Source of the DNA: Phoronis australis
Lineage: Eukaryota; Animalia; Phoronida
Length of the DNA stretch: 64,000 nt
Reading direction: 5' to 3'
Assembly (NCBI GenBank): GCA_002633005.1
Contig: NMRA01000080.1
Location: 463,291-527,290, forward strand
Positions 18,701-42,128 of the stretch are shown here, one piece after another. Position numbers and translations under genes: made by a program. Position 1 is the first letter of the stretch; each line of letters starts with the position of its first letter. Below the pieces are notes generated by a model. That model had not been told where the DNA came from and made no database searches. It worked only from the letters and a program-made list of their open reading frames with translations.

Positions 18701-21700
18701 CAGAGTGAATGCCGCTATATTGCGGTGCATCGTTCCCGCTTGTCCGAACTATGAAGCTGCGAAGAAAGCGGGTATATCGTTTTTTCGACTTCTTCGAGAC
18801 CCCGAAATGCTTAGGAAGTGGCTCGCGGTAGTGAAGAATGAAAGGTACGCTGTTAATAGTAAGTATGAGGCCGTGAAACATCTCAGTGTCAGTGGCCGGC
18901 ATTTCGTCGACAGTCGGCGGCCTCGACGGGCATGATCGGGTTCGAACCACTGGACGGGATAACGAGTCAGTCCGGCCGCGACAGGCCTGATCGGGTTCCG
19001 AGCCACTGGCCGAGATAACAAGCGTTATGTGTGTTTAGACATCAAAAAATCACAAGTCTAAACAACATAGATCTAGGTTCTCCTGTCTGTATTTTATGGA
19101 AGAATACTTCGAATTTATCTCCGAAAAGACCCCAAACTCCTGCTACGGACCTTGGTAAATTGGCCTGCCGAACTTAGTAGGCTACGGTGTGTCCAAATAC
19201 CAATAAATCCGAACAGCGAAATAAAACAACACGTTTTTATAAGAACTCGGTGTATTTTTAAGGGTTTTACATCGAAGTTTGATGATTTATTGGTGTTAAA
19301 CGATGAATTCAAGCGATAAGCTGACACCAGTAACCCGTGTTGTGAACTGCTGAACAGACTGCGTGTGTAACCAATGACATCATTGGATAATTTCAACACC
19401 TCCGTCTGCCGTCAGGTGTCAGGTAACGCAACCGAACGTGCCGTTATCGAGTAGAACTGCTGGATCTATAGATACAAAATAGGTTGTTTTTTGGGTGCCA
19501 TTCTCCTTGAATAACGGGCATCAAACTGGTTCTCAAAATACGGGCACGTTATATCAGAGTATTGGCCCAATTATCACCAGTAGGCCTACCAACACAAACA
19601 GAAGTCGTTCATTTTCGTAGATTAAGACAATAAAGTGATTGATTTTCTGCAGCATGAGAGTGTGTTTCAGAAAAATCACTGTCTTTGTACAGCGTTACAG
19701 TTGTAACATTGCAAAAGTGACGAGCGTCCTGGTAACGTGTACGTCCGTGGTTTACTGCCTGTAACATACTATAGGGATAGAGAGCAGCTAATGCCTAGGT
19801 AATGTAAAGGTTCCTGTACCAACATTTTCGTGCGAATTGGGTCATACCAGCCGTCAGTTGGACGAAGATCTGGAGATTATCGACAGTCCATTTCTTCCAT
19901 GCCCTTGATTCAAATATTGATGCCACCTCCATTAACCACTGCTTACCTTATGATCAAAACAGGGCAAGTTATTAGCAACAAGATCAAATTTCTTTTGATA
20001 TAAACAATGATGGACATAAAATCTCAAAAAAACGCTTGTCACTGCTTTCTACATAGTCTTTCCTTATGAGATAAAATTTGATATTTTCGTAAAAAAAATG
20101 ATTTTTATGTAATTTTTACGAAAAGTCTATATTTGTTATAGCGCTTCATGCAAAGTGAAAATCTTAAAAAAATAACTCTTAAAAGAGATTGAGAGGGAAA
20201 TGCACGTTTCATAGCATCTGACAGTCTTATTGTTTGCCAAGTATCAATTCCTTACGTCACTCGTAAAGGTGAAGGCAATCTTTTTCGTGTCATTTTTAAG
20301 AAAAATACGGTTCGTTGATTATCCCAGAGGCATATGCTTCAGATAATCACGGCTCTTCGTAATTTTATTAATTAGTTAAATTATTTTACTCCTGATTTTT
20401 AAGATAACATTATTTTGGTACACGTTGGTTACATAGATGAGAATGTTTTTTAAGACGACAATAAATTCTTTTTTTAGCCGTTATTGAAGAGCGAAAAGAC
20501 CAACCCATCCAAGATTTTCTGAAAACGTTTGGTGGCTGGCCGATAATTGATCCCAAGTGGGATGAAAGCAGCTTTGATTTGATGAAACTTATCTCTGACC
20601 TCAGGAAATACAACAACAAAATAATCATTAACAACTGGATCAGTCCCGATGACAGAAATTCTACCGTCAACATCATTCAAGTAAGCCAACTTTGCCAGTT
20701 TATTTGTTAAAGCTGCATTTCCCCGCTGTGTAGCCGTCAGCGTTGATTTCATAATAGAACATTACAAGGCTGGTCTGATTTTGAATTATTGCCGATTGAC
20801 CTGGCAACTCAAGTCACAGGACATGCGTGTCTGCACCCTATTCATATCCGTAATTTAGGTGCTGGCCTACTCCAATGAATTCTGAAGCATTTTCTTGAAT
20901 CGCTGAAATAGACTCTTATCATTGGGAGGAATATTTTGATACCAATTTATGAAAGGGAAAAGTCTAATACGATTTTCGTTTTTAACCAGCTGAACAGGGC
21001 GAAATGCAGCATTAAATAATATTATAAAAGGGACGTTCCCGTCCTACTTATGTCCTAAACAACTATAGCACAAGCAGATCAACCTTTTTAATGCTGGTTG
21101 CATATTGTCTTCAGCAATTGACTCCTTCCATCAAAAATTAACTGTGAGTTATCCAGCGATAAACAAGGAGGGTTTGTCAATTTTGCCAACATTGATTTCG
21201 TTCAGGCACCTCTTTTTACTTGAAAATCTTCTGAAACATTTTTTGGCGATGGAAGTCAGTTTTGCTGATACAGAAAGGTTCTAGGCGCAACTTGTATCAG
21301 TTAGTAGAACAAAATTGAATTGAAATCTGAGTTTTTTTAGCGAATAAAAGGCTATAGAATGCAAGCGCGCACCCAGGGGGAGGGGGGGGGGCAATTTGAC
21401 GAAGTAGACAAAAAGATCCGCCTCAGAGAAACGGAAACTCCTAAATAAAGTAGAAAACGAGACAAAAGCCTACTAAAAAATAAGAACTACCAAAAGTTGA
21501 CGAATGCACAATTCAAAGCTCTGAATGCACCCAGTGAATCTTACTACAAGGTCGACAATCTCAAAAATTCGAGCCTGCCTAATTCCTAAGGCTGCGGGGT
21601 GCGCGCATCGTGGTATGTCTTTTTGAAATTTTCCGAACCAATAGTATCGCCCGCACCAACCTCGCCCTCACCCTAATTACAGATTTTGTAACCTAGTTAT

Positions 21701-24700
21701 TATCCTTCCCGTCGTAATCTTGATTGTGATTCAACACTGATGGTATAAATGATACTAGGGCCGTCCCGGATGTGCGTGTACATTCCAAAACGAGGCCAAA
21801 GAAAACAACGCGTTTTCTTACCTCCGAGATAAAAGAGAGTTCTTATCGCTGTGTAATGCGGGACAGCCCTATAAGGCAATACTCGGCCGCACATGTACTT
21901 TTACCTTTTTCAAAATACTGACACCTTTTCAGTTTGACCAGCCTGACCTGGGGATGCCGAGCCGCGATTACTACCTCAAGGGCAGAGTTAGCGAGAGCCT
22001 CATGGCGTACCAAAGATATGCAGAGAAGGTTGCAATAGCTCTCGGTGCAGACCCATCGAATGCGTCGAAAGACGCAAGAGATATCGTCGATTTAGAAATT
22101 CGTCTTGCAAATGTATGTTTGACTGAAAGTTACAAGCTAAATTCAGTGCAGGCATAAGACTTCATAACATGCAAATGTTTCTTTGCTTTTCGGTGCACAG
22201 TTGAATTGCCCTTCAGTTTTGCACATTATATGAATGCAGTCAACCTAGTGCTATTGTGAAAAAACACTTTTAATGCGAGACAGAAGGTTGAAGTCAGATG
22301 ACTTGGCTGAGTAATGAGCAAATGAACTGAGCAAAATACGTCGTTTTATCACGATTCATTTCTTCTTTGATTTTACGACTAGCAAAGAATCTTTCACGCG
22401 ATTATGAAATTAAATTAGTGGCAACTCAAGTAAATGCAATTAAGAAGCTGTTTACGTGCACCAAATACTGAATTCTCTGTGAAATTGTTTCTTTCATTAG
22501 GTAACCGTTCCTGCTGAAGATCGACGCGACAACGAGGCTCTTTACAACCGAATGACAGTAGCACAGTTGTACACCAACGTTACTGACAAAGTGAGTCTTA
22601 TTTTGCAATACAAAGTACAATATCGGACACGTGTAAGTCATTGTCGAGAGAAAAATGTCCTGCTGTTGGTCACAACAAACAGTTTCCACGGTGTTAGGCC
22701 TGTGCTAGGGGCGAGGGTGTTGTAGGAAACTCTAATGATTTAATGTTAAAATCACACGGATTCAACTCTCTGGAATTATAATGCCTCCTTCGTCCTCATC
22801 CGTTGAATGACTAGACCGCTTTCTTTCGGTCGTTAACTCGGTAATTTATCTATCGATAGGCCAACAGACGAGATCAAACGTGCGCTCCGTGGACGCGAAA
22901 ATACAAGATGACGTAAGACGCGAGATATCGTTATGTTTTTGCTAGCGAAACATGTGAGCACATTAGCTTCCTACGCGAGATTCTTACGTCTACGGATCGT
23001 CGCCCAGCGTTGCGTTCCCTAAACCAACTTTCTTGCGAGTCTGGGAGGTACCGCCATGCATTACTGGCGAGAGTCTACGGGACGCACCTGATGGTGTTCA
23101 GTAGCCAAACCGCAGAACTACCGAACACAACAGGAAGCTTGTATAATCGCAACTTATGTTTTACATTCCATTGCTTGGTGCAGCTAATAGGTTTTAACAC
23201 CTTTTCTCTACGGTAAGCACAGGGTCTTCAGCACAACACGGGATTTTTACATGAATTTCACGGATTTTAAACCAAAATTTACCAATGTTTACAGTTCGAC
23301 TGGAGGCGTTACTTGTCACTTGCTTTTGGACCTTTAAACATGACCATTGATGACACGGAAGATGTGATCGTATACTCGCCGGTTTACTTGAGGAAAGCAG
23401 CTGATATAGTGGAAGACACGCCCAATAGGTAACTTATGGCATTAGCACAGAACGAGGATTAATGAGCTATGTGGTGCTGTCGCACTGGAATTAAGATATT
23501 TGGTGCTGTACCACTCAGGGGCGGATCCAGGATTTTGAGTTAGGGGGGGCAGGGCAGAGTATTAACCAAGATTTTGCTCGTCAGACATTCACACCCCCTA
23601 ACTTCCAAATGGAATCTGAAAGAATTTTAAGGGGGCATGGCACCCTTGCCCCCCCCCCTCTTAAATCTGCCACTGCCACTCTCAGCAACCAGAATACACT
23701 GAGACAAGTGTTCGTTTACCACTACGTAGTTTTGATTGATGTTTTCGATTTAGCGTACGTAAACCTTAAATCCGAATTTGCATTAATCTATTTCAAAATG
23801 TCCGTCACGCAAAGAGCATAACAACTGCTTCAACTGCTAAACAGTGTGGTAACCACGTAGATTTATTGATGCGTCTATGACGTGCCATTGTTTCAAACGG
23901 CAAACCTATACAATAATATCCCTGTCACCCCAGCACCCTGTAAGAAGCCCCTAATGTTTTTCTTAAAACGTCAATTAATATGATTATATAGACCTTAAAC
24001 TGCGAATTATTCGATGATATGACGTATACTTTTTAACAGGACCCTTGCTAATTACCTGATATGGAGGATAGTTATCAACCGAATGAATAACTTGAATCGA
24101 GGACTGCGCGACCTCAAAAATGAATACAATAAGGTAAGCTCGATACTAGGGACCCTGTGACACTTTCATTTGTATCAAATCCTTATGGGTTAATTTGGAA
24201 ATTTTCCAATACGCAGTCTTACTGTTCATTCAAAATTTCGAAAAAATGGATTGCTTTGACTTGTGTGGGTCGCACATCTAACGTACGTGCGGTTTGCGTA
24301 TACAGTGCGCAACATAACATTTTCCTTGCTGCAAATAGTTATGGACATAGCACGCATGCCGAGCATTTTCCTAGCGAGCCCGATTACTTGTCCAGTAAAT
24401 ATTAATAAAATAAAGTGAAAGTTCAGAAATAAAACAAAAGGTGTTTCACAGAAAGAATACAAAAGCATTATGATTATCATTAATGATTCTAATTAACCAC
24501 GCGCTTAGTAGATGATTGAAATTTCACAATTATGACAACCTGATTTAACCGTGGTTCAGATTAGTATCTTTCTTTTCCTCTCAATACCTAGGCTGTTTAC
24601 GGCACCGACGTCCAAGGTTCTTGGTGGCGCAAATGCGTCTCCTACACCAGCGATAACGTGGGTATGGGAGTGGGAAAGATGTTTGTTGAAAAGTACTTCG

Positions 24701-27700
24701 ACGAGTCCGCCAAAAGTGACGTAAGGCAACGGCTTTTGTATTTGGGCATACTTCAACCTCTCCATTAATTTTGTTGAAATCTGGTTAAAAACATTGGACC
24801 GTTTAAAATTTTGGCTTTTTAATTAATAAAGTTGTTAGCAAAGGACTGTCTTTAAATTCTTGCCATTTATCATTTCTAAAGCTGCAGACACGTAGATGAA
24901 CAGAGACTTATCTCCAACTAGATCGAAATCGTGGTCCTTTTACACCTTTGTATAAGCGCAAGATGTTCAGTGTCACTGGTTTTGTGCTTTTACGCACAAG
25001 AGTGTCTTGACCGAAACTTAATTGAAACAGTCTGAACTGCTTTCACTTCGTTTTGTGTCGTTATGGCTCCAAAGATACTCTTTAATTAATGCTTTAGTAT
25101 CATAGCAATAACATAAGCAGCAAAAACAAAAGTGATAATTTCATTAAACCTGCTGTAAATTTCGTCAAACACTGATTTTTGGTGGAGGACACTTAATTAC
25201 CGTCACGAAACCTGTACAACACGTTCTTTACTCAAATTGGAGTTTATTCTTGGAATTGGAAAGAATTGTCTATTTACTTGAGACCGGCCTTGTCAAGGTT
25301 CTTTCCAAGACCATGGGCCACTTCTCATATTGGTTAGTATCAACGCAACTGCAATGTTTTCCAGACATTGGAAATGATAGAAAATATACGTCACGCATTT
25401 AACGAGTTACTAGGCAGCGTATCGTGGCTGGACGATGAAACTAGAGCCGTTGCCCGAGAAAAGGTATTGTATGCTAATCAACTTTTTAATCTAGACTTGT
25501 TTTATTTTTTTCCATAGATTCATTTCACTCGTTGGACTTAATAACATTGCCTATCATTTTATTATCTTATGTGCCTCATTTTATTCAAAATAAAGGCACC
25601 ATTCTATAACTTTAAGAGAGAATTATTAGTCTTCTAAACCGTCACTTGTTGGCCACCTTACGTGACCTACAGTTAAGTATGTCTCTGCCCCGATAGGATT
25701 CGAGGCCCAGTCGGGATAGAGGTCTTTTCAGACCTAATTGTAGGTCACACGATGTTACCAACATATAGCATGAAAGAAGACTAATAATTCTTTCTTATAC
25801 CACACCCACGTTCTGATTTATAACGGCACACTTATATTAATTACATTCTTTCCAGGCCGACGCCATAGGCGAGAAAATTGGATACCCGGATTACATTCTC
25901 AACGACACGTTGGTTGACGCCGACTATAGTTATGTAGGTGTCTTCTTCAGTTAAATGCAACCATTTGTTTGACGCGCACTCTAAGATCATGCTAATGCAC
26001 ACAACTGTCAATCGCAATACGAACTGAACGAGTCAATTTATAACAAATAGCCACCCGACCCACAACAAATTGCAACAAAAGGTTTTACTAGGGTTTTGTG
26101 CTCTACTGCGTAAACTTAGTAACAGGAAAAAAGTCTACAAAAATCTGACCACAGGAAATGGGCTAAAACTGCGTCATTTCCAAGATGGCTGACATGACGT
26201 TTTCGAAATCACCAAAATTAGATATAATTTCTTCAATAATTGAGACAGAGACATAATTTTTAGTTCTAGTCTATGGTTTTATGGGGTGAGAAACTCGCTG
26301 GTGTGGATAAAATTAAGATATGGTCAGTATTTGATAGGAAATTCAAGATGGCGGCTAAAATTCAAGAACGAAAAATCACTGATTTGTTCATTATATCTGG
26401 TGGTCAAAGAAACGTTTCTAACTTTAGCCTTTATTTTTTCTAAAAACATTCATTGAAATTGCACGAAAGTATGCACATGTGCATATCAATCTATTGTCAG
26501 TACACCATGAAAATATAAGGATACACTGTGTTTTCGTTCCAAGGCAGAAAAGATACTTTTATAACCCAAAAAAGCCAATGCCAAATTAGCTTACAAGATT
26601 ATACAAAGTGTTATTATCAAGAATGGTGACACTTGGCAATAAATTATAAATCAACATCAACAAGTCAGTATCCTTGCCGATTACTGTGGTGGAATGCATA
26701 TTATATTGTTTACTGCTGTTTTTGCAATGACCACACCAGCGTCCCCTTCTGCCTGAACGGCTGTGCATCCCACTTTCTGCAGCTGGTCACTTTTTAAGGC
26801 GATCAGTTGTTGCCTGTTACTACCAGTGGATAGGAATTCATCTCAATCTCTTAACCATCAAAGTCCGTTTCTCCGGCAAAGTTCACAGTCGGATAGATGC
26901 TGGTCTGTCTCCGTCTCTGTGTTATCCTTTATCGAAGGACCTGCACCATAACCATCAAAGACAACAGTGGCTGCCTCAGAGTGCTTTGCCGTGAAGTCAG
27001 CGTATGCTCCGACAATTTTTCTATAGGTATTTCTCTTTTTCCATTTGAGCTTGTGCGGAAAAGATCCCCCCATTAAGCGCATACCTTTCAGTCTGGAGAC
27101 GTACTGAAGGTGTCCTTGGAACAGCGGTCATGAACGGCTTGATCCAGTTGAGGTCTATCAGCCTTCTTCAAGATCAGGTTGTCCTCATAGAGAGACTCTG
27201 GGTGTGGACTGAGCTCGAAACTCACAACTGCCTCAAGAGACAAGTCGTCTTACCGGAGTACCACCTGGGATGGCTGGAAGAGTAAGGAAGGATCGATGGT
27301 TCTGTCAGGACCAACTTGGACTGCAACTGCATTTCCCAGGGTCTTAGCATTCTCTCTCCTCTTAAAAGAGAAAGAAAACACAGGTTGTCGAACCATTCTC
27401 TTAATGATTTTGTTCCCAACAGATTGACATCCATGCACGTTGACATTTGCGTTGGCGACAACACCATTGATGACATTGCGTAATTCAGGGTCTGAGGAGA
27501 AAGGTGAAAATGCGGTCAGCGTTGTGCTTATCTTTGCAAAGTCGCATGCATCTCTTTCAATTCTGGCAGCAATTGCCTGCGCCATTGCATTGTTATTAGT
27601 ACGACTGTGTTTGGTTTGAGCCCTTCCGATTCCGCCTCGTTGTATTGTCGGCTGCGAATTAAACTCGTTAAACTTACAACTCATTGTCTAGTTTATCTGG

Positions 27701-30700
27701 CGCTGTTTGTGTTGTTCGCTTGTTGTGTACGTGAGGTCATTGGAGTCCTGCAAGGTGATGTTCACCTCTGATGTTACGGTGACCAACATTGTCTACAATG
27801 CTTGCTGCTCCTCTGTCATCTTACTGCCATGAGTCAAGCCGCCTGTAGTAATTTTTCTCAATGGATAGATCACAGCTGAGGCCTACCCAAAACTGTTTTT
27901 GTTCGCCGAATCATACGAAAGCCCTTTTTGAAACTTCGCATACACATCTAGGTGTTTGCTCTCCATATCAGCCATTTCTTGTATGTAGAGGTACGCAGAT
28001 TTCAGGTAGTTGTGGTGTCCAGCTGCAGCAAATATTGGCAAGGCATCACCAACAGCTGGCAAGTGATCATCCAAGACCGAGTGTGATCTGCCTTGATCAT
28101 TGCCTGAGCAGTATGGAACATTTTCAGACCAGCCACAGACTTCTCAAGATTGTTGATGATCTGCACAATTGCGGTTGATTGTGGGGCACTTCATACAGAT
28201 GTTGACATTTTGCCTTGGGCTTCTAGTTTCGTTGTGTGTTTTTTTAAATAAAAACTAGTGGCAAGCAGATATACACTAGACAATTTTTGTTACTTTTATG
28301 CAAGCCAATGCTTTGGATTAAATATTAAATATTAATCCCATGTTCATATTTTAAAGTAGGTCAGTCAGAAATCAGCCAAATCTAAATGTTTTAAGATCAT
28401 TCAATCAGAAACCAGTCATATCTAATCATACTTCCGTTATAATTGATGAAGTGAAAATCACTGATTTCTGTTCTTGAATTTTAGTCTCCATCCTGAATTT
28501 CATATCAAATACTAATAACAGCTTATTATTTAAAATGACTTATTCTTATTAAAATGACATAGGCATGTCATTTTAATAAAAATAAGTCATTTTAAAGAAT
28601 AAGCTGTTTAATCATATCTTAGTTTTAACCACACCAGCGAGTTGCTCACCCCTTAAAACCATAGACTAGAACCAAAAATTATGTCTCTGTCTCAATAATT
28701 GAAGAAGTTATATGTATTTTGGTGATTTTGAAACGTCGTGGCGGCCATCTTGGAAATGACGCAGTTTTAACCCATTTCCGGTGGTCAGATTTTGGTAGAC
28801 TTTTTGTCCTGTTAATAGTAGTGCATAAAACCTACTTAACCAGTGCTTCACTTTTTTGACGTTTAATATACTGACTTCACTATAAAACGAATGTATATAT
28901 GTGAGACGTCTTTTCAAGCTATGATGAGCTCTACTTGAGCGGTCTGAAAAATGTCTGACTTCAAAGTAAGAAAAAGCAAGAATGAAGCGGTTTGTTAATC
29001 CAAGTATAAAACTTATGAGCTTCATTGCAACCACTGTAACTATAGAAAATATCAAGAGTTCACTGGCCTTATTTCACGACTTAGTGTTTGTGGTGCGTCT
29101 CAAAAGTAAATCAAAACAACAAGAGTATCTCTTGTGTGAAAGAGGATGTCCGAATGTAATAGTCATGTTACCGAACCAGCGCTCAATTAACTCTGATTAC
29201 TCAGTTTGGGCTTGGAAGAGGTAAGTGGTCCGCATAAAGGCTGGGAATTTTGCTGATAGTTAGTGTAAATCACGGGTGTCATTCACACGGCCTTTTTGAA
29301 ACTGACATGCAGGGTCAATGAAAGCAGTTATTTGTGAAGTTAACCCTTCTCTTAGTCACAGAACTGTCCCAGTTGGACTGTGCAACTAAATACAGCTTAT
29401 CAAAGGGATTATGATCCTGGTTGAGAATATAATTTTAGTACCCCTATGAATTCTGAATAACCGAGCCCAGAATGTTCTAAAACAAATGTTTTTGCCTTTT
29501 TCATCATTCGGGTTTCATAGTATTTACTATTTAGTTATTCAATGTATTTTCACAGCTTCAGTTTGAGTCTGACAAGTACTTCGAGAATGTTCTTGAAAAC
29601 CTTTCCGAAAATTCAAAAAGAGGTCTGCTGTCGCTTAGAAAACCGGTAGACAAAACAACGTAAGTACGGGAACGTTAATTTGTACCTTGAACATTTCAGT
29701 CACTAAGAACCATTTGTTTATGTTCGAAAAGTTGTTTGATGAAATATAAAACTTCTAGTTGTTCTGTATTTGAACATGACTTGAAATGGAAAACCAAGTA
29801 AAAAACTATTTAATTACAGGTGGTCTACCTACCCACAGGTTGTGAACGCGTTCTACAGTCAAAGCAAGAACATGATAAGTAAGGCTAATGATGATAAGTG
29901 GAACAGTTTTCGAATAAAATGACGCCAAACGAATTTTTGTGCATGAAAATTGGTTTAATTCACCATGTAAAATAAACTTTCTCATTCGAGTTCGATCTTC
30001 TATTCCAGTGTTTCCTGCCGGAATACTGCAACCACCATTCTACAAGAAAACTAATCTTAAGTAAGTTTAACTATGAAAGGGATCTCACATAAAATAAGTG
30101 TGACTTTCCAGCTTAAAATGCCAAATCACTTATTTTTGCAGCAGTCGTATAATTATGTCAAATCGGACTGGGTAAACTGGTGTTATGCGTTATGATCATT
30201 CGGAATCAAAAGTCGTCATTTGAGATAAGCACGTCCAGCTCTGGCTGGTACTAAAAATTGATTGACTCTTCAGATTTCTGTCCAATGGTTGTGTTCTATT
30301 TTTGGATCTTGATCATCGGACCCAACGAGGTGTGAATGGATAACGTGACGTACCAACAATGCCATTCATTGAGACGAACTCGAACGTTCTCGTCCCAGAA
30401 TATAATGTCACCGTAATCTCTGTTGGAGACATTTCAAAACATCCAGCCAATCAAAATTACCAAATGTCATCTGGGTAAAATCCATGAATCCAGTCACGAC
30501 GACACGACAAATTGACCACTCCACGACAGTCAGTCCCAGAAGACGTATTCGTGCATATAGCAGATTAAATTTCCTGATTACTGTTACAGGGCTCTGAATT
30601 ATGGCGGCATAGGCATGGTGATCGGACATGAGATTACACACGGATTTGATGACAGAGGTAGGTGAAGGAAGGCAAATAGTAATTAAAGCAAAATTGAAAA

Positions 30701-33700
30701 TGTATGTAATCAGCCATATTGTCATCACTGAAGAAAAAGTAGCCGTATGAATGCATCGCGGAATATCGATGAAGATTATCACTCATCACGTGGCGAAGTA
30801 TGGTACGAAAACATTGTGATTCTTTCCTGGACTTAATTTGATAATTGAAAGCAACGCTGATTTCGTACTTTCGGCGGCGACTTTTTTCATGCTGTTGCGA
30901 CACCTGGTGGCGTGTTCGCTAGAGAGGTAAGCGGCGATATTTGAACATTTTAAAAACTCATTACTTGGTCCCACGCATGCGATACGTTGAATCCCAGTCT
31001 ACCTCTTCTGTTCAAGGACGTATGTTCGATTCTTCGCGCTCCTTCTCACCATGTTCAAACCAACAATTAGGCTATTGATTGTGTTCATGAATCAAAACCT
31101 CTATAAAACCTGCAGGCACATTGAGACAAAAAGCTTGAGCATGATGACAAAAAAGAAAAAAAAATGTGCTTGGCGAGTGTCCAGAAACTTACATGTAGAG
31201 GTGAAACCAATCAGTTTAACTGTATCAAAGGACGGCCGTCTCAACCGCTGACCCTCCTATGTGACGGTGATAAGCTTTACATGTACCTGTCAATTATAAT
31301 CACCTAGTGTGAGAATTGTGTCAGTATTTTGGTTTAGATGATGTGATAATTCCAGACCGCCGGCGGGAAAATTGGTTTGAAATTGTTCTGGATGGGTGTT
31401 TTGGAATGAAAGCATCAAACAGCTGCCTTTAAACAGGATATGTTGGCTGAGAATCAACCTTGGCTACCCCATACGTGGGGCCGGATATTGTTCAAATCAC
31501 GCCGTTTGTCTCACAAGCGACACACGCCATCAAGTGTCGCTATAAAGTGAAAGATTCGAAAGTGAGGACCAACAAAACGTTGCTATGTGTTCTTAAATAA
31601 ATATAGTAAAGCATTGACATTTTCCGAATTTTACCACGAAATTCAGAAAAATTTGCAGTTGGAGAAAAGTCAGTAAAAGGTCGACTGAAATGAACTAATC
31701 AACTATATTTATGGTGACGCAACTTGCCAGTATTATTGTGTTGACATTACAACATTCATTGTATCGCTATATTTCGTGATGAACGTGGATTACCCACAGC
31801 ATTTTTTCAATCTCTCATTAGATTCGATTGATTGGCAGGTCATAAAGCTTCAATGGTAAGTATTCTGCCTGTATCTGGTAAGCCTGTCTCATTACATCGT
31901 CATTACTGTGTTGGAAATTCGTGTGTAGCACATCACTGATAGTTGTAGGCCTATATACAGATGTTCTTCATATGTATAACACAGGGCGACAATACAACAA
32001 GGACGGCAACCTGGTTGAGTGGTGGACACCAGAGGTTGTGTCAGGGTTCAAGAAAAAAGCGCAATGTATCGTCGAACAATATGGCAATTACACAGTGGAG
32101 GAAATCGGAATGAAGGTAAGTTGACTATATGCTTTGATATCAAGACTTTTGTTTCTGGAAGGTAATTGTTAATAAAAGCGAGTTTGGCTTTCATAAGTAA
32201 TAGTTCGGGAAACGTGATTCTCTTATGGTTCTGAAATTCTCTATCAACTAGATAGAATAGTGGGAATTGGTTTTGATGTGGGGAAATTATGTTAAAAATG
32301 TATTTGCATGCTCCTAACTATGCTACTCGCTGGTTCCCTGCGTGTCGCTAGGTGGTAACCAGCACGCAGGTATCATTTAATTTTCCTCCGGATTTTTTTT
32401 TACACCGGCGTTTCTGATTGGCTGGTCGAATTCACAGCAGGTAGCGCTTTACGCAAACAAACTGGCATAACTTATGTAGGAAATGGAAATGTGGTCTGTT
32501 GTACAGATATAGCGGTGTTTAAAATTAATGTTCAAGAAATGCGAATACCGGAATGATTGTGGTTCTGTCTTTTTGGAGTGCATCTTTCTACTGTCGCCGA
32601 CTTTTGTTCACGTTGCTGTCCTGTATTCATACAGTATGAAGTAACACACCGGTTAAACCGGCCAGATATGTGTTTACTGTACATGTATTACTCTAGAAAC
32701 AAAATAGTTGTTGCTACGCCACTTGCATGACAAGGCTAAAAATCGTTCATAGGCAGCCATCACTTTGTTGTAAAGCTAACCAATGACAGCCGAGGTTACA
32801 TGAACTAATGATAAAGCGCGTGCTACTGCGTGATACCTGCGTAGCGCACATCATGCAGTATTATCCCTCAACACTACGTCTCGAGTGATTTACAGCGGAT
32901 CACTTTGTACACACACGCTTTGACTATTGCCAAGTTCGAGATTAGCTTTACGTTCCGTTGCTGCCCCCTCATGTGACCAGAATAGCGCTGAAAATGCCAA
33001 TGACAGATAAGGAGGCACAGAACAGTTCTCACAAGGGTTTGCCTATCAGAACACACGTCAATGGACTCTTCACCCTTTCTTCACTCTCATTCTGTCAAAA
33101 ACTGTATGCAAATAAAGAAAAGTTATGAGTCATTTCACATCACAAGCCCTACAGATGAGCACAGAAACTTTATTCTTTCTTGTATTTTTGACCCTTTCAC
33201 TCCCACTGGCAACCTATCTAGACTAAGAAAAATAGGGACGAAAAATGCAAAATCGGCACTTTTCACCCCAAAACCACCACTTCGCCTGCCGATGCTCGAC
33301 TAAAGCCAACAAAAAATGTGGTCTAAAAGTACTGTCAACCAACTAGCTTTGTTTGCAAACCTGGCTTGTTTGAGGGCTACCTGAAATCGCGGCCAATTTC
33401 TCAGTTGCTACACAGCAATGCACAAATACAACAGGGGGCCACCGTCTTGAAGAAGAGTCAGTGCAGCTACAGCCGAGCAAGTACGTGACCTTTTTTATGA
33501 TCAGCATATTCACAAACACAAACAAACCACATTCACTGAGCTTACATGCAATGCCTACATACAAAATGCCCCCAAGCTTGGCCTACCCCAAAACTTTAAT
33601 ATTTTGGGAGCGCAAGTTGGCCGCGGCCTCAGCCTAACTGTTCAGTGCGACCTCAGCGTGAATTTACAGGGTGGACGCCACTGCACATTCAATATTGATG

Positions 33701-36700
33701 TTCACAACAGGAATGGGGTCACAAACATTTCCATCGGACAAGAGAGTGATGATCTTCTACTTCGCCTGAATAGCGCTTAGCAAATGACTTACATTACGGG
33801 GTTCCAGTCGGTGGCGCATAAAACACCAATCACTTCGTGACCATCATCAATCCAGCGTATTCATAGCTGTTAAATCATATCCATGGATTGGCCTCTCCTG
33901 CCCTTTGAACAATCCATCTGCAGTGGCAGATCTACGTTTTCAGTAAGGGAGGGGGGGGTTAGGATTCGAGTGAATCTGAAGCGCGTAGCGCCCAGCGGAA
34001 GGAAGGTCGGGAGGGCGTTTGGCGGGAGGGGGTTTTTCCCCCTCCCGTGTAACATTTTCTATGTTTTTTAGTTGTTGCTTTCATTTTTCTGGCAAAAATT
34101 TTTTCAATTTTTATTTTTGATCCTGTCCCGACGGGGGGGAGTTGAGCTCCCTGAACCCCCCCTGTAGATCCGCCTCTGATCTGCACTTGTTTCACCAATT
34201 TTTCGTTCGGCACTTGCTTTACGAAACGCTGCACAGATCGTTTAGTTTCTGCCATCTACGAGATCACGCGATAAGCTATACCTTTAGCCCCTCCCAGTGG
34301 TTAGATATTAACAAATATAAGCTAAGACCAAGTATGTCGTTTTGTTTCCCATGTAACTTTTCATCACTACTCAGTTGCATTTGATCAACGACATTTTTGT
34401 AGATGAACGGCGTAAACACACAAGGAGAAAATATTGCCGATAACGGTGGCATAAAACAGTCCTTCAAGGTAAGCTCAACAGTGTCGTCAAATGATTGTAC
34501 TCGTTGCGCTCATAGAGAGCAAGCATCATGTCAGAGTCAAGACCCGCAATGACATATGGATTGGGGTTTTCAAATGATTGAGTGCCAAATAGAGTTTTCA
34601 TTTTTCTACACATTTGGCTCAGTACACAGATTTGATACTAAGCCGCCCCAGAGCACTGATACATTGAACATTTATTCAAATACCACGTAACAAATGTATT
34701 CTGCATGTACGTACCCCGGCAGTAGCTACATGGCACAACCAAGTCTAGTTATTCCTGATACAAATACAAGTAGATTCAAAGATGATAGTTGCAGCGATGA
34801 CATTGGGATAAAAATATTACATTTTGCCGTGTGATTGATTCGATACGCTGTCACGTACGCATCCGTTGTCGATGCCATTAACAGTAATTTACTTACCAGG
34901 CGTACAGAGAGTGGGTGGCGAAACAAGGACGAGAGGAGCAAAGGTTACCCGGCATGCAACAGTACACGCCCAACCAACTATTCTTCCTCAATTTTGCACA
35001 GGTGAGTCACCGTTTGAATGTCCCAAAAAGAAAAGCGAATCATACACGTTGTTTATTATTGCTTTTCTGGGTCTGTTGTAGATCTGTTGTTTGCGATTTG
35101 AATATATTCATTTTCAGAGTCTCGAAGTCCATAGTATAGCACTGGAATAAACTGCAGGCATAATTTATCCCGAAACAACTATTTCTCATCAAAACTTGTC
35201 AAACCAAAGGTCTCACTTTCGATCATGTTTGCCAAAGGTATACTAAAACTCATTACCGTAGGTATGCGCGTATTTAGGCCCGTGCGCCCATATCCAAAAT
35301 AATGTTTCTGTTCAAAATAAAATCATTACATAGACTCGTGTGCTTGTGCTTTACTTCCATGAGAGGCGGTCGTACTTGACATAAGGGTATATATTAAACA
35401 CGGGGGTTTAGTTGAGTTATTCGTCCATTAGGGGCCTACTGGTATTTTGCTTTTCATTAGTTAAACCTGCATTACACCCTGTTTAGCTGGCTAAAAATGA
35501 AATTAAGTCTTTTACTCTTATCAAATCGGTCTCGTAATAATCCTTGTGGCGATAGGGTTCCATTTCTGTTACCAACTCATGTCATAGCCAATGCATACAT
35601 GCGCTATTTTGGCCGACGTCTATAGTAGGCAACTCATCCGCTAACAATATTTGCACCCAAGTGAACGAGAATGAATGCATCGTTCACCCCCACTGTCTCC
35701 AGCAAAGTTTTCAGCACGTCAAAGGCTTGATGGAGCCGACACAGATTCAAGTGATCTTGTCGCTATTCATAGGGTTCGCCAAATGTGTAGTGGGAGATAA
35801 TTGCTGTCGTAACAACGGCGTCTATTAAGCGTGCGAGTTTCAAAGTAAAAAAAACAAAAAGATAAATTAGGCACACGATCAACATGTCTGCTTTTAAAAA
35901 GTAAATATTAGCAGTCTTCGAATTTTTAAAATCGGTGCATTTTTATAGAAGTTAGCGAATAGATTTTATTCAGGAGTGCGGTTGAACCACACCCATAAAT
36001 TACATTTCATGAAAGAACCTGTAAGTCACAGTCTAGCGTATAGCGTTGGGGTGATAAAGGCCAAGTGTTAGCGTACGAGATGCCTCATGATAAACTGAAG
36101 CTTTTTCAGTAGCAATGGTTTCGATCTCCTGCTTGTTAGTTACGGAAACAGAATCCTCACGGCAGGGAATTTTGACAACCGATTTCGCAAGTCACAAAAG
36201 ATCTAATTCGATTTTCTCTTTTTTGCCAGCTAATGCAGCTTTAATGTAAAACACGTTAACTATATCTATCGTTTCGTAATCAATAAGCCAATCTTCGCTC
36301 ATATGTTTTAAATTTAGCTCCTTGGTTTTACCGTTTCAGTCACATATTAGCCAGTGCGCTTAATTCGACCGGGCGTTAGCGCAGCTTCACATCTAGGCGC
36401 ATGCGGACCAACTGAAATTGGCGAATATGCGTTGATAATACGTAAAACATTGGTTTGAACTGAAACGCACAACGCGAGTCGGTCCTCCACTGAGTAATGT
36501 TTGTATTCTGACGGGTTATCGGGTTTACCGCATTGTACTACTCATTACTAGATATGGTGTGGCAAGTCTCGACCCCAGAGACTGTTCCACAAAATAAAGA
36601 TTGAGGCTCATTCGCCAACAAAATTCAGGTATTAAGAGTCTTTTGGAGTATCTGGAACATCCCAGGCATTTTCGTAGCCTCAAATTATCCGGCAGAGGTG

Positions 36701-39700
36701 TTTCACATCTGCTCATGTGCTAACTTCAATCATTACTGCAAGTCATGTGACTCAAGACAGTGAACGTAGCCGGGATACCCTTCTGACGAACAACAGGCTG
36801 ATATCAAGCAAGAGAAGGCAGGTTAAGTATTGGGCGGATAATGAATTTTAAGACCTGCTGTGCTGAAGCCGTGATTTTAGCCGTCTCTACTTGACGACGA
36901 CTGATTTTTGCAATAACAATCGAAATTCGCTCACGCGCAAATATGAAACACCCCCGAAGGACAACTTGAGGCTACGAAAATACCTGAGGTGTTCCCGATG
37001 TTTTGGAGCATGCGAAAAAATGAGGTTGCACTGTGATCGTGAAACATGCATCGCACATTTTCTATGAAAATGCCCAATTTGACATGTACGCGTCGTACTC
37101 AGAGCCTGTTGACTTTTGAAAACTAGCGCTATGGCAAAGATCATCGCTCGATGTTGCCAATAAAAATTGCATGGTGGCTTCGTCATTCATTGCAAATGAG
37201 AACTGGGGCAGCATGCGGAGTCCAGAATGTTGCAAGCACTACGGCCACTGAATATCTTGTAGGCCTTCGCAGAGCGCACTTCGCGTCACGATAGAGTCTG
37301 TGTGTTAACTAGTTTCTGTTTCTCTTGTTAGAGTTATTGTGGAACCTCAAAACCGCAGTATAAGACAAAATCCATACTTTGGTCAAGACATACCATTGAT
37401 TACCTAAGGTTGAGTATTTTTGTAGTTCGCGTTTTGTTTTTTTGTTTAATTGTTTTCATGTGAAACCTGTCGGAATGTTATTATTATTTCAACTATCAAC
37501 CGTCAGCTTTCAATGTCGTTTTATTGCCTCGGTTGCTTTTTGTTACTTACAATTAACTAATTATCGAACGTACGGCAACTTGAATGTTCCCGTGCTTCTG
37601 TGTGTTGCTATTTCAAGAGTAGAAACAAATCCATGGTCGCGCCTCTGAATTCTAGTTACGATCTCCTAAACTAAAGTACCGAAACCCGCAGTACAAATCC
37701 CAGCCCCGCGTCCCTAAATTCCACCCTCGACTTGTGACTAGTCTCTGGGCCTGGAGTGTGGCCGTAAGAACCATATTCGGCGCACGTGCATGCGGAATTC
37801 GGGGTGGCAGGTCTAGTGGGATTTGTGCAGCGGGATTGGTGTTTTCTGATCCAGGACAGGGGTTTAGGAGATCGTGGCTGAAATTTAGAGTGGCCATGGA
37901 ATCGTTTCCATCCCCTGCATTTAGGCACCACGGTTTAGGTCTTACTTAAACTTATCGAACTGATGCAGGTAGCATGGCTATACATTTTGCTTTTACGAGT
38001 TGATAGATTTAGCTTCATTGATAATGAATTCTTGTTATTTTGAAATTGTCCCAGCGCTAACAACTTTCGAATGTGAGTAACGCCTGACAATTTTATTTCT
38101 AGTGCGTTAAAATAATTTGAGAGTACATTTAATTGTTATATCATTACAAAATACAGCAAACCAAGGGCACACAACTAAACCACATTAAACACGTGCTTTC
38201 GGTCAAGACTACTTATCGTTAGGAAACAGCTTGGGTTTTTGACAAGGAACTTGTTTACTACTGCGTCAAGTAATCTGTAACACTTTTTCACGAACGCTAA
38301 CATTGCCAATTTGGCAGTTTGGAATTCTTGAAACGAAAAAGTTTGTTCTGGTGCCCAGGATTAATTACATATATGGTTATTCAGAAAAATATGATGACTA
38401 ATAAAGTCCAGAAGTTGCCTGCCTGTCCCTCGCTGACCTTCAAACCCAATGCTTTGGGTCAACCAAATCTCTTGATTCCTGAACACTAAATCAGTGCCCA
38501 GTGTTCGAAGCTGTGGATGTGATTTATGGATGCGGTTTTATCGCCTAAGATGTCAACTCTTCAGTTTCCTAGTTTGAGTAGGTAGCAGATTTTCACCAAG
38601 TTGTTCATGTCCGCATATCCTTGCCAATAGCTCAATTATCCTATTAACGCCGTTGCTTGAGCCCCCAGGGACCTAACCTGCATGTTATTTCAGATATGGT
38701 GCGGTTCAATGAGGCCTGCCTACGCTTTGACACGCATAAGAACGGGTGTGCATAGTCCTAACGAGTTCAGGTAAACTAGACTTTGTAGCTGATCAGGGCT
38801 GCGTTCCGCAAATTTAATTTCTTGCGAGTTTGGCGAGATCACGCAAGTCGCTGCGAGTTACCGCCATGCATAAGCGACGCACGAGATCTCTATCTTTCGC
38901 TCCTGAGAACTTTTTCGAGTAATTTCAAAACGGGTCCCAGTTTACTTCAGACATCTCAGACGCACAGGTAAGTTGCCACTGATATGTGACCTCGAAATAG
39001 TAACGATCAATTATATTATCCCGAAGTCAGGCTCATTGGATTCGAGCTCTCAAAATCGGCACATGGACGACCGGTTTCCCCGTGCGACTACGACGTTAAG
39101 TTCAAATAGGCGCCAGGTGCGTATCCAGGGAGGGCGCTGGGCTACTGTTGTATTGCTGTATTGATGGAGTGTCGCAACTTTTCAATATCCCTAGTCATGG
39201 TGATTCTGGATCCGCGACTGCGCTTCAGCCACCAGTTTGAACCACTCCGATCAGTGGAAGTCGACTAAGTAGTGATTTGGTATTTAAGTGGTGATCAATG
39301 ACACGCTGCATGCACAAGCTTTTTGGTAATCATTTAGGGGTGTCCTGGATTTTGAGAGCAACAAACTGGTTACAAAATCCGGGACCCTTCTAAATGCCTA
39401 CAATTGCTAACGGTTTGACGATGAACCGTTTGTGTCTTGCAGCACTGTTTTCAATTCGTTCGTGAAACTGCATGCGGAAGTCTATATGATCGGCATCCTA
39501 GTATGAGTTGGGTACTTGTATTGGTAATTAATGTACTAGGAACATTCCCGATGTGTTTCAAAAACTTGAGTCTAAATATGTTCACAAAACATAGCCTTAG
39601 ACATGGGCTGCGCAGCATAGGGGGTTGGGGGGGGGGCTGTAACCCCCCACTTTTTCAGTGCTATGCTGCACATGGTCTATAGGCGATGCACCACAGGGGG

Positions 39701-42128
39701 GCTGAGGTGGCTTTAGCCCACCCACTTTTTCAGTGATGCGCCGCCCATGTTAGAAGATTATGGGTGTGACTACGCAACCCAGAATTTTAAATTATTGCAC
39801 ATTCCTACATGAAACTTTCGACCGGTTTAATGTTACAAATAATGTCCATTTCAATTGTGTCAATAAGAGATTCACTTTCAGTTTTTTATTCCAGGTCTTT
39901 CTGACCTTCTAAGTGACATTTGCCTCACAGATCACCGATACCGAGTGACATATGACTTGAAAACGAAGGATTTTTCGAAACCAGGGCTGAGTTCCGTAGA
40001 TCTCAAGACATATTAGCTTGTACTGGCGGCAAAGTCTTCACTAATGGAATAGAAACACAATTCAACAATCCAGTCTCACCAACCACTCACTTCAGTGGCC
40101 GTTTTTTCCTAAGGCAGGCTAGTAAGCTCCAGAGCTTACTCGCAAAATATCCGCTTTTCACTCGCGGGATTTTTCAAGGTCTTTTGCTTTGATAGCAAGA
40201 AATTAGTATGTTTACGGAATGCTCGCCAGCATGTTCCATCAATTCAGAACAAGCGCTACACGTGCTATTGTGGTGAGTCGAGCATCGTTGGTGATGTTTC
40301 GGTTTAGAGAGAAAAAAGGAATATGGGTTGCTTCCTGCAGACTCAAGAATTTCGTGTGCAAAGCTAATGTGATCACGCGCTATGCTCGTCATGCATGACG
40401 ATATCTCACGAGGTTCTTGTGTCTANGCGACTACGACGTTAAGTTCAAATAGGCGCCAGGTGCGTATCCAGGGAGGGCGCTGGGCTACTGTTGTATTGCT
40501 GTATTGATGGAGTGTCGCAACTTTTCAATATCCCTAGTCATGGTGATTCTGGATCCGCGACTGCGCTTCAGCCACCAGTTTGAACCACTCCGATCAGTGG
40601 AAGTCGACTAAGTAGTGATTTGGTATTTAAGTGGTGATCAATGACACGCTGCATGCACAAGCTTTTTGGTAATCATTTAGGGGTGTCCTGGATTTTGAGA
40701 GCAACTAACTGGTTACAAAATCCGGGACCCTTCTAAATGCCTACAATTGCTAACGGTTTGACGATGAACCGTTTGTGTCTTGCAGCACTGTTTTCAATTC
40801 GTTCGTGAAACTGCATGCGGAAGTCTATATGATCGGCATCCTAGTATGAGTTGGGTACTTGTATTCGTAATTAATGCACTAGGAACATTCCCGATGTGTT
40901 TCAAAAACTTGAGTCTAAATATGTTCACAAAACATAGTCTTAGACATGGGCTGCGCAGCATAGGGGGTTGGGGGGGGGGGCTGTAACCCCCACTTTTTCA
41001 GTGCTATGCTGCACATGGTCTATAGGCGATGCACCACAGGGGGGCTGAGGTGGCTTTAGCCCACCCACTTTTTTCAGTGATGCGCCGCCCATGTTAGAAG
41101 ATTATGGGTGTGACTACGCAACCTAGAATTTTAAATTATTGCACATTCCTACATGAAACTTTCGACCGGTTTAATGTTACAAATAATGTCCATTTCAATT
41201 GTGTCAATAAGAGATTCACTTTCAGTTTTTTATTCCAGGTCTTTCTGACCTTCTAAGTAACATTTGCCTCACAGATCACCGATACCGAGTGACATATGAC
41301 TAGAAAACGAAGGATCTTTCGAAACCAGGGCTGAGTTCCGTAGATCTCAAGACATATTAGCTTGTACTGGCGGCAAAGTCTTCACTAATGGAATAGAAAC
41401 ACAATTCAACACTTCAGTCTCACCAACCACTCACTTCAGTGGCTGTTTTTTCCTAAGGCAGGCTAGTAAGCTCCAGAGCTTACTCGCAAAATATCCGCTT
41501 TTCACTCGCCGGATTTTTCAAGGTCTTTTGCTTTGATAGCAAGAAATTAGTATGTTTACGGAATGCTCGCTAGCATGTTCCATCAATTTCGAACAAGCGC
41601 TACACGTGCTATTGTGGTGAGTCGAGCATCGTTGGTGATGTTTCGGTTTAGAGAGAAAAAAAGATTCTGGGTTGCTTCCTGCAGACTCAAGAATTTCGTG
41701 TGCAAAGCTAATGTGATCACGATGACGATATCTCACGAGGTTCTTGTGTCTAATGAACGCAAGCCTGTGGGTCAGCATGTGCTTTCCTGGCAACATTAGT
41801 GCGAAGACCGACCTACTGATACAACTAAATTCTGAAAGGGCTAGTCGCACATGATATAACAATGCGGCATGATATTGTCCTTCACGTATTTATTACCAGC
41901 CTCAATGAGAAAGCGAAATGGTTTTGAATCATCATTCGCTGCGATACATGCCTATGTGTATGTTATTTCACGAGGTAAATTGTCTCTGCGTGGGTAAAAA
42001 TTTAATGTGGAGTTTGTCTTCCAAACAGGGTGAAAGGTGCGCTGTCCAATTCCAAGGAATTTGCAGAAGCCTTCAACTGCCCGGTAGGATCTACCATGAA
42101 CCCGGCTAACAAGTGTGCGGTGTGGTAA
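6718..42128 (+). CDS. Neprilysin-like M13 zinc metallopeptidase (type II membrane protein), 22 coding exons, about 766 aa
   Basis: Phase-consistent GT-AG exons: 6718-6791 (or 9242-9267), 11267-11442, 15230-15268 (duplicate 15900-15938), 17275-17436, 18331-18414, 20478-20680, 21933-22112, 22501-22590, 23295-23428, 24040-24133, 24592-24720, 25365-25463, 25856-25933, 29556-29659, 29820-29878, 30009-30060, 30590-30657, 31985-32115, 34403-34468, 34900-35001, one of 36552-36628 / 37332-37408 / 38694-38770, and 42029-42128. Motifs: [95 protein letters not shown]. Confidence 0.95.
8159..8321. mobile_element. hAT-like MITE with 5-bp TSD
   Basis: TIRs CAGTGGCGGAT / ATCCGCCCCTG; TSD TTTTG; inverted homologue at 23516-23675. 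Confidence 0.8.
9242..9267 (+). CDS. Neprilysin candidate alternative N-terminal exon 1b (MLVTGGGG)
   Basis: ATG at 9242, AG|GTAATT donor at 9268, phase 2 matching the TM exon. It is short, so a chance match is possible. Confidence 0.4.
10468..10662. repeat. 38-bp minisatellite, about 5 copies
   Basis: Unit GAGAAATTAGGATACCCACTCATTCAGAGAGTGGATTC (copies start at 10581 and 10619); each unit has an internal CCACTC/GAGTGG stem; no spacers. Confidence 0.9.
11267..11442 (+). CDS. Neprilysin signal-anchor (transmembrane) exon
   Basis: WWKRRTKCE followed by hydrophobic [22 protein letters not shown]; tttcag acceptor and GTGAGT donor. Confidence 0.9.
13373..14548. mobile_element. Non-autonomous TIR element with internal direct/inverted duplications
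   Basis: TIR AGAGAGGTTTCGCAAAGCGACGTGAAC.TGAATTATCACGCAT of about 43 bp at both ends; flanks ATT/GTT; an internal block of about 100 bp repeated at 14091 and 14306 with a partial inverted copy between. Confidence 0.8.
15224..17418. other. Probable uncollapsed haplotype duplication (15224-15892 vs 15894-17418)
   Basis: Near-identical copies joined by a single N at 15893; the first copy ends mid-exon; the copies differ by SNPs and indels. Confidence 0.8.
16414..16667. mobile_element. MITE of the CATGCGCGCACCCA-terminal family (other copies near 21362-21609 and 61464)
   Basis: Termini CATGCGCTCGCCCAGG / GGCTGTGTGCGCGCAG; internal AAAAAGGTCCGCCTCAGAGAAA shared with the 21362 copy. Confidence 0.6.
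18545..19507 (+). mobile_element. Internally deleted Kolobok-like element with THAP remnant, nested in a hairpin MITE
   Basis: TTAA at 18541-18544 and TGAA at 19508-19511; 15-bp TIR AGGAGAATGCCACCC with 1 mismatch; ORF 18705-18935 CIVPAC...FFRLLRD...RKW...SVSGRHF (THAP with the third Cys changed to Ser). Confidence 0.8.
20264..20375 (+). mobile_element. Degenerate solo terminus related to the 1342 Kolobok-like TIR
   Basis: TAAAGGTGAAGGCAATCTTTTTCGTGTCATTTT...TTCGTAATTTTATTAATTA aligns by eye to 1339-1448. Confidence 0.65.
23516..23675. mobile_element. hAT-like MITE with 5-bp TSD
   Basis: TIRs CAGGGGCGGAT / ATCTGCCACTG; perfect TSD CCACT; reverse copy of 8159-8321. Confidence 0.85.
25613..25804. 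repeat. Fold-back element, about 185 bp
   Basis: Arms TAAGAGAGAATTATTAGTCTTCT / AGAAGACTAATAATTCTTTCTTA, inner GTGACCTACA / TGTAGGTCAC, followed by TTATACCACA. Confidence 0.7.
26089..28882 (-). mobile_element. Academ-like DNA transposon remnant in a neprilysin intron
   Basis: Imperfect TIRs of about 300 bp (about 26089-26395 vs 28440-28834). Degraded minus-strand fragments [56 protein letters not shown] and [11 protein letters not shown] resemble the transposase plus XPG-like nuclease of Academ. Exact ends are uncertain. Confidence 0.7.
28517..28608. mobile_element. 92-bp palindromic MITE inserted into the right TIR of the Academ-like element
   Basis: AACAGCTTATT...AAAATGACAT agg CATGTCATTTT...AATAAGCTGTT; absent from the corresponding left TIR; TAA on both sides. 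Confidence 0.75.
30590..30657 (+). CDS. Neprilysin zinc-binding HExxH exon
   Basis: [22 protein letters not shown]; the third ligand motif GENIADNGG is in exon 34403-34468. Confidence 0.95.
33921..34178. mobile_element. hAT-like MITE with 5-bp TSD
   Basis: TIRs CAGTGGCAGATCTAC / GTAGATCCGCCTCTG; perfect TSD ATCTG. Confidence 0.85.
36552..36628 (+). CDS. Neprilysin penultimate exon variant A ([26 protein letters not shown])
   Basis: 77 nt, phase 0/2, AG acceptor, GTATTA donor, open frame; keeps WCG and HSP..FR. Confidence 0.85.
37332..37408 (+). CDS. Neprilysin penultimate exon variant B ([26 protein letters not shown])
   Basis: 77 nt, phase 0/2, good polypyrimidine tract, GTTGAG donor; C, G, P, I, H and R are in register with variants A and C. 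Confidence 0.75.
38694..38770 (+). CDS. Neprilysin penultimate exon variant C ([26 protein letters not shown]), closest to canonical
   Basis: 77 nt, phase 0/2, tttcag acceptor, GTAAAC donor; resembles the neprilysin segment [26 protein letters not shown]. Confidence 0.9.
39084..41752. other. Probable uncollapsed haplotype duplication (39084-40425 vs 40427-41752)
   Basis: Two near-identical intronic copies of about 1.33 kb joined by a single N at 40426; SNPs and a 17-bp indel. Confidence 0.8.
39602..39749. mobile_element. Dimeric mini-MITE with 5-bp TSD
   Basis: CATGGGCTGCGCA...TGCGCCGCCCATG, two units of about 70 bp, TSD TTAGA. Confidence 0.75.

Follow-up and report, generated by a model that had tools for sequence, protein, structure and literature searches.

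Three duplicated exons covering an active-site segment in a neprilysin-type gene of Phoronis australis

A 64,000-nucleotide stretch of the Phoronis australis genome (assembly GCA_002633005.1, contig NMRA01000080.1, positions 463,291 to 527,290 of the forward strand; hereafter the window) carries a gene for a neprilysin-type M13 peptidase of the Nep4/neprilysin group, in which three short cassette exons, A, B and C, precede the last exon. The cassette covers catalytic and pocket residues; it is real, expressed and ancient, and it also occurs in gene models of at least three other phyla. We consider it probable that the three copies are active-site exons duplicated in tandem and spliced as alternatives, yielding isoforms with changed specificity.

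The first coding exon of the gene was not found, and the N-terminus and start codon are absent from the model. A hydrophobic, putatively transmembrane stretch lies in the first modelled exon (11267-11442), where it aligns with the anchor region of the Lineus protein and may represent a type II membrane anchor. Exons from position 29556 onward are joined by RNA reads, and earlier ones are supported by homology and GT-AG fit only. The zinc ligands in HEITH and GENIAD, together with VNAFY, all fall within the RNA-supported frame. The gene shares HEXXH, GENIAD, VNAFY and both Pfam domains with human neprilysin (MME; PDB 1DMT, 5JMY) and the M13 family, including the Drosophila Nep4-like branch. Three exons pass the Pfam cut-off for Peptidase_M13_N and two that for Peptidase_M13, and the remaining exons match below cut-off. 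Among the proteins fetched, the closest full-length match is a neprilysin of Lingula anatina, at 57.7% over 728 columns; a word-based search of proteins, run with a 68-residue exon, returned nothing among 14 candidates.

A preliminary description of this DNA had proposed three mutually exclusive exons, and its coordinates, 77-nt lengths, AG..GT borders and peptides were all recovered on re-reading the sequence. Placed alone between 35001 and 42029, each copy gives a C-terminal stretch of 92 residues. Inclusion of none, two or three copies shifts the frame, causes an early end and loses the normal C-terminus, so the earlier claim that such combinations break the frame is borne out. On the plus strand of the window, 43 stop-free 77-nt stretches are bounded by AG and GT, and only A, B and C carry all six shared residues C3, G4, P8, I15, H20 and R26; the next best carries two. 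A motif scan of the intron from 35002 to 42028 revealed no fourth copy, and no other exon of the gene is duplicated except by a likely assembly duplication.

Pairwise, the three copies are identical at 29-34 of 77 nucleotides and 7-12 of 26 residues. Their codons agree at the third position in 6-7 of 26 cases, which is the chance level; for the first or second position the figure is 11-16 of 26. Pairwise pS is 0.67-0.88 (saturated) and pN 0.46-0.60. The chance-level third positions and low nucleotide identity indicate that the copies are old and, judged from their sequences, A, B and C are old duplicates. A self-BLAST of the window showed no similarity between the flanking introns at E 1e-5, in agreement with what had been reported before. 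A, with E 0.0087, and C, with E 0.062, match positions 149-174 of Pfam Peptidase_M13, neither reaching the curated cut-off.

Table 1. Features of the neprilysin-type gene in the window (window coordinates)
Feature	Position	Strand	Remarks
Whole gene model	11267..42128	+	21 exons including one cassette exon; 741-residue open frame; tblastn with relatives and splice-site fitting
HEXXH (zinc-motif) exon	30590..30657	+	RNA joints; single copy by tblastn
Constitutive exon before cassette, ends LFFLNFAQ	34900..35001	+	RNA joints 34468>34900 and 35001>A/B/C; Pfam M13 115-148; donor GTGAGT at 35002
Exon A	36552..36628	+	77 nt, AG..GT, phase 0/2; likely orthologue of Lingula isoform X2 exon
Exon B	37332..37408	+	77 nt, AG..GT, phase 0/2; most divergent copy
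Exon C	38694..38770	+	77 nt, AG..GT, phase 0/2; family-typical, dominant copy
Last coding exon (KCAVW, stop)	42029..42128	+	Matches loose read ends behind A and C; Pfam M13 176-205

Splicing was assessed with three stranded RNA runs from one study (X2, X3 and X4), chosen by their species label, of which 18-19% each was read and mapped to positions 34850-39030; joints with fewer than three reads were not listed. Because mapping did not cross the duplication at 39084-41752, exits to the last exon were scored from loose read ends matching that exon rather than from joints. Pooled joints from the upstream exon (n=97) enter C in 82 cases, A in 10 and B in 5. By run (X2/X3/X4), the counts are 43/37/2 for C, 5/4/1 for A and 0/2/3 for B, and exits to the last exon number 38/19/not listed after C and 4/5/not listed after A. 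Junction reads for all three copies come from the sense strand only.

In runs X2 and X3 the entries into A (5, 4) balance its exits (4, 5), which argues that A is not joined to C. At the three-read threshold the listed joints include none of A>B, A>C, B>C or skip-all, a negative that is weak for B. An assembled RNA contig (X1) holds C only, which is no evidence against A or B because contigs drop rare variants. A and C are almost certainly true alternatives, and B probably yields a full-length isoform as well. The reads seen would correspond to one copy per message, giving three forms of a membrane neprilysin-like peptidase. Splicing is thus not confined to C, as upstream reads exist for all three copies, and A is not peculiar to this genome, as an A-like exon is annotated in Lingula.

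The alignment of exon C with human neprilysin (1DMT) covers chain residues 637-664 (E 2.9e-06), and the distances between Trp, His, Gly and Arg identify the segment as residues 692-717 in published numbering, so that the earlier mapping of its residues holds. In the human enzyme we take Val692 to line S1', His711 to stabilise the transition state and Cys694 to form a disulfide. All three copies keep Cys694, His711 and Arg717 and vary at 692-693 (S1' wall), 697 and 709-714 (S2' wall). Residue 709 is Glu in A, Ser in B and Gly in C, and residue 714 is Thr, Asp and Asn, respectively. A and C have the same Ile/Trp at 692-693, and B carries Ser692, Tyr693, Arg710, Ile713 and Asp714.

Several of these positions have been discussed in the literature. 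In the available portion of PMC4908401, Arg717 binds the inhibitor backbone, Trp693 swings between S1' and S2' into the space left by Gly714, and larger counterparts of Gly714 (ECE-1 Ser735, NEP2 Leu744) are invoked for inhibitor selectivity among NEP, NEP2 and ECE-1. Docking poses in the accessible sections of PMC11997989 have Trp693, Tyr697, Asp709, His711, Ser712 and Gly714 at S2'. According to excerpts of PMC2259306, specificity is determined mainly by S1' and S2', the former nearly invariant and hydrophobic, the latter variable.

In a survey of near relatives only, picked by the Cys-His-Arg pattern so that those three residues are invariant by construction, 140 non-cassette segments have Trp693 in 139 cases, a hydrophobic residue at 692 in 138 and Gly714 in 131, and 11 cassette versions have Trp693 in 8 and Gly714 in 3. 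In our proposal, C would act as the default enzyme, its S1' pocket being hydrophobic; A would retain S1' (Ile, Trp) and alter the S2' side (Glu709, Thr714), and B would open and polarise S1' (Ser, Tyr) and alter S2' (Arg710, Ile713, Asp714). A hydrophobic P1' preference, as in M13 zinc endopeptidases, would be expected, with B lacking the usual hydrophobic 692 and Trp693. From these residues, the isoforms likely differ in peptide substrate specificity and inhibitor preference.

Our comparisons extended the cassette beyond Phoronis. Among 30 protein clusters opened, 24 had several members, and in three of these RefSeq isoforms swap exactly this 26-residue segment between identical flanks, just as in the window. 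Four versions are present in Lineus longissimus (XP_064642717-29), two in Lingula anatina (XP_023930211-14) and two in Ptychodera flava (XP_070561875-78), the last in a different paralog only 565 residues long. The swap in these three phyla was overlooked in the preliminary description and sits undescribed in automated RefSeq isoforms. Eleven natural versions of the segment, in four genes, are now known. A Physella cluster, in which two slightly differing segments have accessions of their own, was not counted, and in Cyprideis a protein with the segment twice is two models fused into one.

Lineus differs from the window by its four versions and by a second swap, over the HEXXH exon, in isoform X3 (P0295, XP_064642721.1, residues 593-614); the matching segment is single-copy in the window. 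Lineus may therefore combine two active-site cassettes, to judge from its isoforms. This second swap changes the residue matching human Met579, an S1' residue named in the available part of PMC11997989. In Ptychodera (P0421/P0353) residues 508-532 are swapped, and version X2 resembles Nep2-type segments, with Leu at 693.

Across 151 distinct segments, similarity was scored so that residues seldom seen in the family count for more. Exon A and Lingula X2 are reciprocal best matches with a score of 27.9 (next for A, 13.4), a value reached by none of 3000 best-of-150 column-shuffled sets. They share the run Gln700-Arg-Leu-Phe703 and Ala710, including the rare residues Arg701, Phe703 and Ala710, which occur in only 2-5 of the 151 segments. 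Exon C is identical to Lingula X1 at 19 of 26 residues, both being family-typical. The reciprocal match of A with Lingula X2 suggests that the cassette was probably inherited and is very old; at least the A/C pair, we infer, predates the split between Phoronis australis and Lingula.

A tree of 58 rows, hand-chosen from about 450 fetched proteins and built with the cassette segment left out, places the gene in a 41-row group (98/99) that also contains lophotrochozoan neprilysins along with vertebrate NEP and whose sister is ecdysozoan Nep4. The gene's own position is in an unresolved group that does not indicate the phylum. The Ptychodera gene clusters with Glandiceps and lies outside a 50-row group (97/96), so that the cassette-bearing branches need at least two origins or many losses.

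Tentatively, and as something we hold possible rather than probable, the penultimate neprilysin exon could be a recurrent specificity-switch module. An early lophotrochozoan would have had a multi-exon cassette, of which several members were kept in the window, the brachiopod and the ribbon worm; the C type would have become fixed in molluscs, and in annelids one resembling Lineus X2, for which the four best matches are all in the annelid-containing group; and a hemichordate paralog would have invented its cassette independently. If so, B-type exons (Ser/Tyr at 692/693 in the window, Asp/Phe in Lineus) would break the near-invariant hydrophobic S1' rule, and a single gene would alternate, depending on the tissue, between enzymes with different cleavage sites in neuropeptides.

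How one copy is chosen is suggested by the splice sites. The introns between copies measure 703 nt (A-B) and 1285 nt (B-C), presumably too long for simple steric blocking. Donor scores are 2.1 for A, -0.7 for B (the weakest of the gene) and 5.6 for C, compared with 2.0-12.1 for 19 constitutive donors; the A and B donors thus lie at or below the low end of the constitutive range, and the acceptors are ordinary. The order of donor scores follows that of the pooled read counts. In the A+C, B+C and A+B+C products a stop would fall 58-78 nt ahead of the last junction, which should expose them to decay. The long introns, weak donors, missing docking signal (see below) and decay pattern favour competition among weak sites. 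Choice would then be set by competing weak splice donors under trans-acting control, and wrong combinations would be lost by frameshift as a backstop, some of them through nonsense-mediated decay.

A 92-nt inverted repeat (36650-36741 and 36908-36999, 77% complementary) starts 21 nt behind the A donor. Reads cover it at 90% likeness on both strands; it is probably a small repeated element and could affect that donor. Other short inverted repeats are probably due to chance.

Several observations weigh against alternative splicing of three active isoforms. The RNA counts are small, 97 junction reads from one study. The RefSeq isoforms are automated models read at the protein level, and 21 of the 24 multi-member clusters show no segment swap, among them those of the nemertean Tubulanus, the annelid Owenia, molluscs, Pieris and Nymphon, although automated isoform lists are weak evidence on this point. 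Within 150 nt beside each exon, a search for docking/selector RNA pairing gave best 24-nt docking windows of -17.4 and -14.7 kcal/mol, no better than 12 shuffles each, and the A+B and skip-all products would escape the 50-nt decay rule. Other observations concern B. This copy has no Peptidase_M13 Pfam match at E up to 1 and no clear counterpart among the 151 segments (best score 14.7). The junctions that the preliminary description had put forward for checking were read from 35001 into all three copies and, for A and C, onward to the last exon, but the exit from B is not listed at the three-read threshold. Sense intronic reads lie just 3' of B (37510-37789) in all three runs at a depth of 1.5-3.5, and they are nascent RNA or B read-through; neither AATAAA nor ATTAAA occurs behind B before 38184. 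Given the unlisted exit and these reads, the B form could be minor, arise by read-through or be spliced only in part.

Taken further, the same two observations would fit a gene in which only A and C work, B being a decaying or non-catalytic copy whose low-rate splicing or read-through gives an inactive or truncated product. The lowest donor score, the want of a clear orthologue and the loss of both Trp693 and a hydrophobic 692 point the same way. We nevertheless regard this as unlikely, since B keeps its length, phase, splice sites, Cys694, His711 and Arg717 despite third codon positions randomised relative to A and C. Moreover, B takes 3 of 6 junction reads in run X4 versus 2 of 91 in X2 and X3 together (Fisher p 0.0013, a post hoc value from few reads and a sample of a kind not known). 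Lineus X5 also has a version with polar 692 and aromatic 693, although it is identical to B at only 5 of 26 residues, the likeness being limited to polar 692, an aromatic non-Trp 693 and Arg710. A somewhat smaller chance attaches to isoforms that are real and serve to adjust stability, turnover, the pH optimum or resistance to natural inhibitors, and not cleavage-site specificity. Many of the differing residues (700-708) are outside the pocket residues named in the accessible parts of PMC11997989 and PMC4908401, A and C do not differ at 692-693, and the positions of the other pocket residues named there (Arg102, Phe106, Arg110, Phe563 and Met579) are in shared exons of the gene. Changed specificity is favoured by the fact that all three copies differ at 709 and at 714, the latter a selectivity position in the available portion of PMC4908401, with B differing at 692-693 too.

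The history of the cassette is a separate matter. It is not very likely, but would be compatible with the proposed mechanism, that the cassettes of the window, Lingula and Lineus go back to separate, repeated duplications of a small exon and that the A-type likeness is convergence. That independent origin can happen is indicated by the Ptychodera cassette, in a paralog outside the group holding the other three; moreover, cassette-bearing rows are not grouped in the tree, and Tubulanus and Owenia have one version. The second match of Lingula X2, Lineus X4 (18.9), is nearly as good with Lineus X1 (17.8) and window C (17.7), making that link weak. Inheritance is favoured by the Gln700-Phe703 run and Ala710 common to A and Lingula X2, which convergence would have to reproduce. 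That the copies are an assembly artefact or dead pseudo-exons is hardly credible. Two near-identical duplications do flank single-N joins in the assembly, but A, B and C are far from identical, lie in N-free sequence and all have spliced reads, which already contradict this explanation.

Mutually exclusive exons are a known kind of arrangement, and their instance in an M13 peptidase is apparently undescribed. Insect serpins, such as Manduca serpin-1 and Drosophila Spn42Da, carry exon cassettes for the reactive loop. As in the window, one gene alters a protease-related specificity by swapping duplicated exons, but in the serpins the exchanged part is the terminal bait loop of an inhibitor, whereas in the window it is an internal wall of a protease's catalytic pocket. 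Tandem-duplicated exons of human KHK, PKM and ATE1, listed in the part of the PMC8373072 table consulted, resemble the cassette in being homologous, equal-length, same-phase alternatives. The cassette differs from them in that its three versions (four in Lineus) carry the catalytic His711 and substrate-binding Arg717 plus walls of both prime-side pockets, and in that its exon length is not a multiple of three, so that wrong combinations shift the frame. ATE1 is controlled by competing RNA structures according to its abstract, and no such signal was found at the window cassette.

No M13 exon cassette was described in the full-text literature searched, matching the preliminary description, which knew of none; subscription papers and the Drosophila catalogue were not covered, so absence from print is not proven. 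In the portion of the PMC8373072 supplement examined, MME, MMEL1, ECE1, ECE2, ECEL1 and PHEX are not listed in this human tandem-exon catalogue, and four of five control names were found. PMC5740500 likewise returned no M13 gene, a negative that tells nothing, since the control KHK was missing there too. The strings 'splic' and 'exon' are absent from the text of PMC2259306, the main texts of PMC4165533 and PMC9013439 contain no peptidase term, and the part of PMC8791509 consulted has both terms sought, only in unrelated places.

M13 peptidases terminate or shape signalling by peptides, and gene duplication is known to diversify the family, according to excerpts of PMC2259306. In vertebrates the segment varies between paralogous genes (the residues at 714 of NEP, ECE-1 and NEP2 in the PMC4908401 excerpts), whereas here it varies within one gene by splicing. 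The locus would thus represent a second route of diversification, in which one wall of the catalytic pocket is swapped by splicing and the arrangement is kept across phyla. Its isoforms would be natural chimeras, identical but for 26 residues, offering a test of how far P1'/P2' preference and inhibitor selectivity depend on residues 692-717, which is also relevant to drugs needing to tell NEP from NEP2 and ECE-1. Single-isoform annotations of invertebrate neprilysins can hide such active-site variants.

Other features of the window include two duplications around single Ns. The 1.34-kb direct duplication behind the cassette (39084-40425 and 40427-41752, 97% identical, around the N at 40426) likely represents two haplotypes that the assembly placed one behind the other. 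Around the N at 15893, 15224-15892 is repeated in 15894-16430 and 17248-17418, duplicating parts of two neprilysin exons; 171 nt are 100% identical and the extra exon copy is truncated at the N, likely an assembly artefact. A THAP domain (1516-2199, plus strand, E 3.5e-06) within an element with inverted ends (1338-1496 and 2327-2485) likely marks a DNA transposon. An intronic element at 26117-28817 has inverted ends of about 200 nt (91%) and is likely a decayed transposon; its minus-strand open frames (27253-28143) have no Pfam match. Finally, minus-strand frames at about 46000-47500, which have no Pfam match at E 0.01, look like what are presumably exons of a TRMT2A-type RNA methyltransferase.

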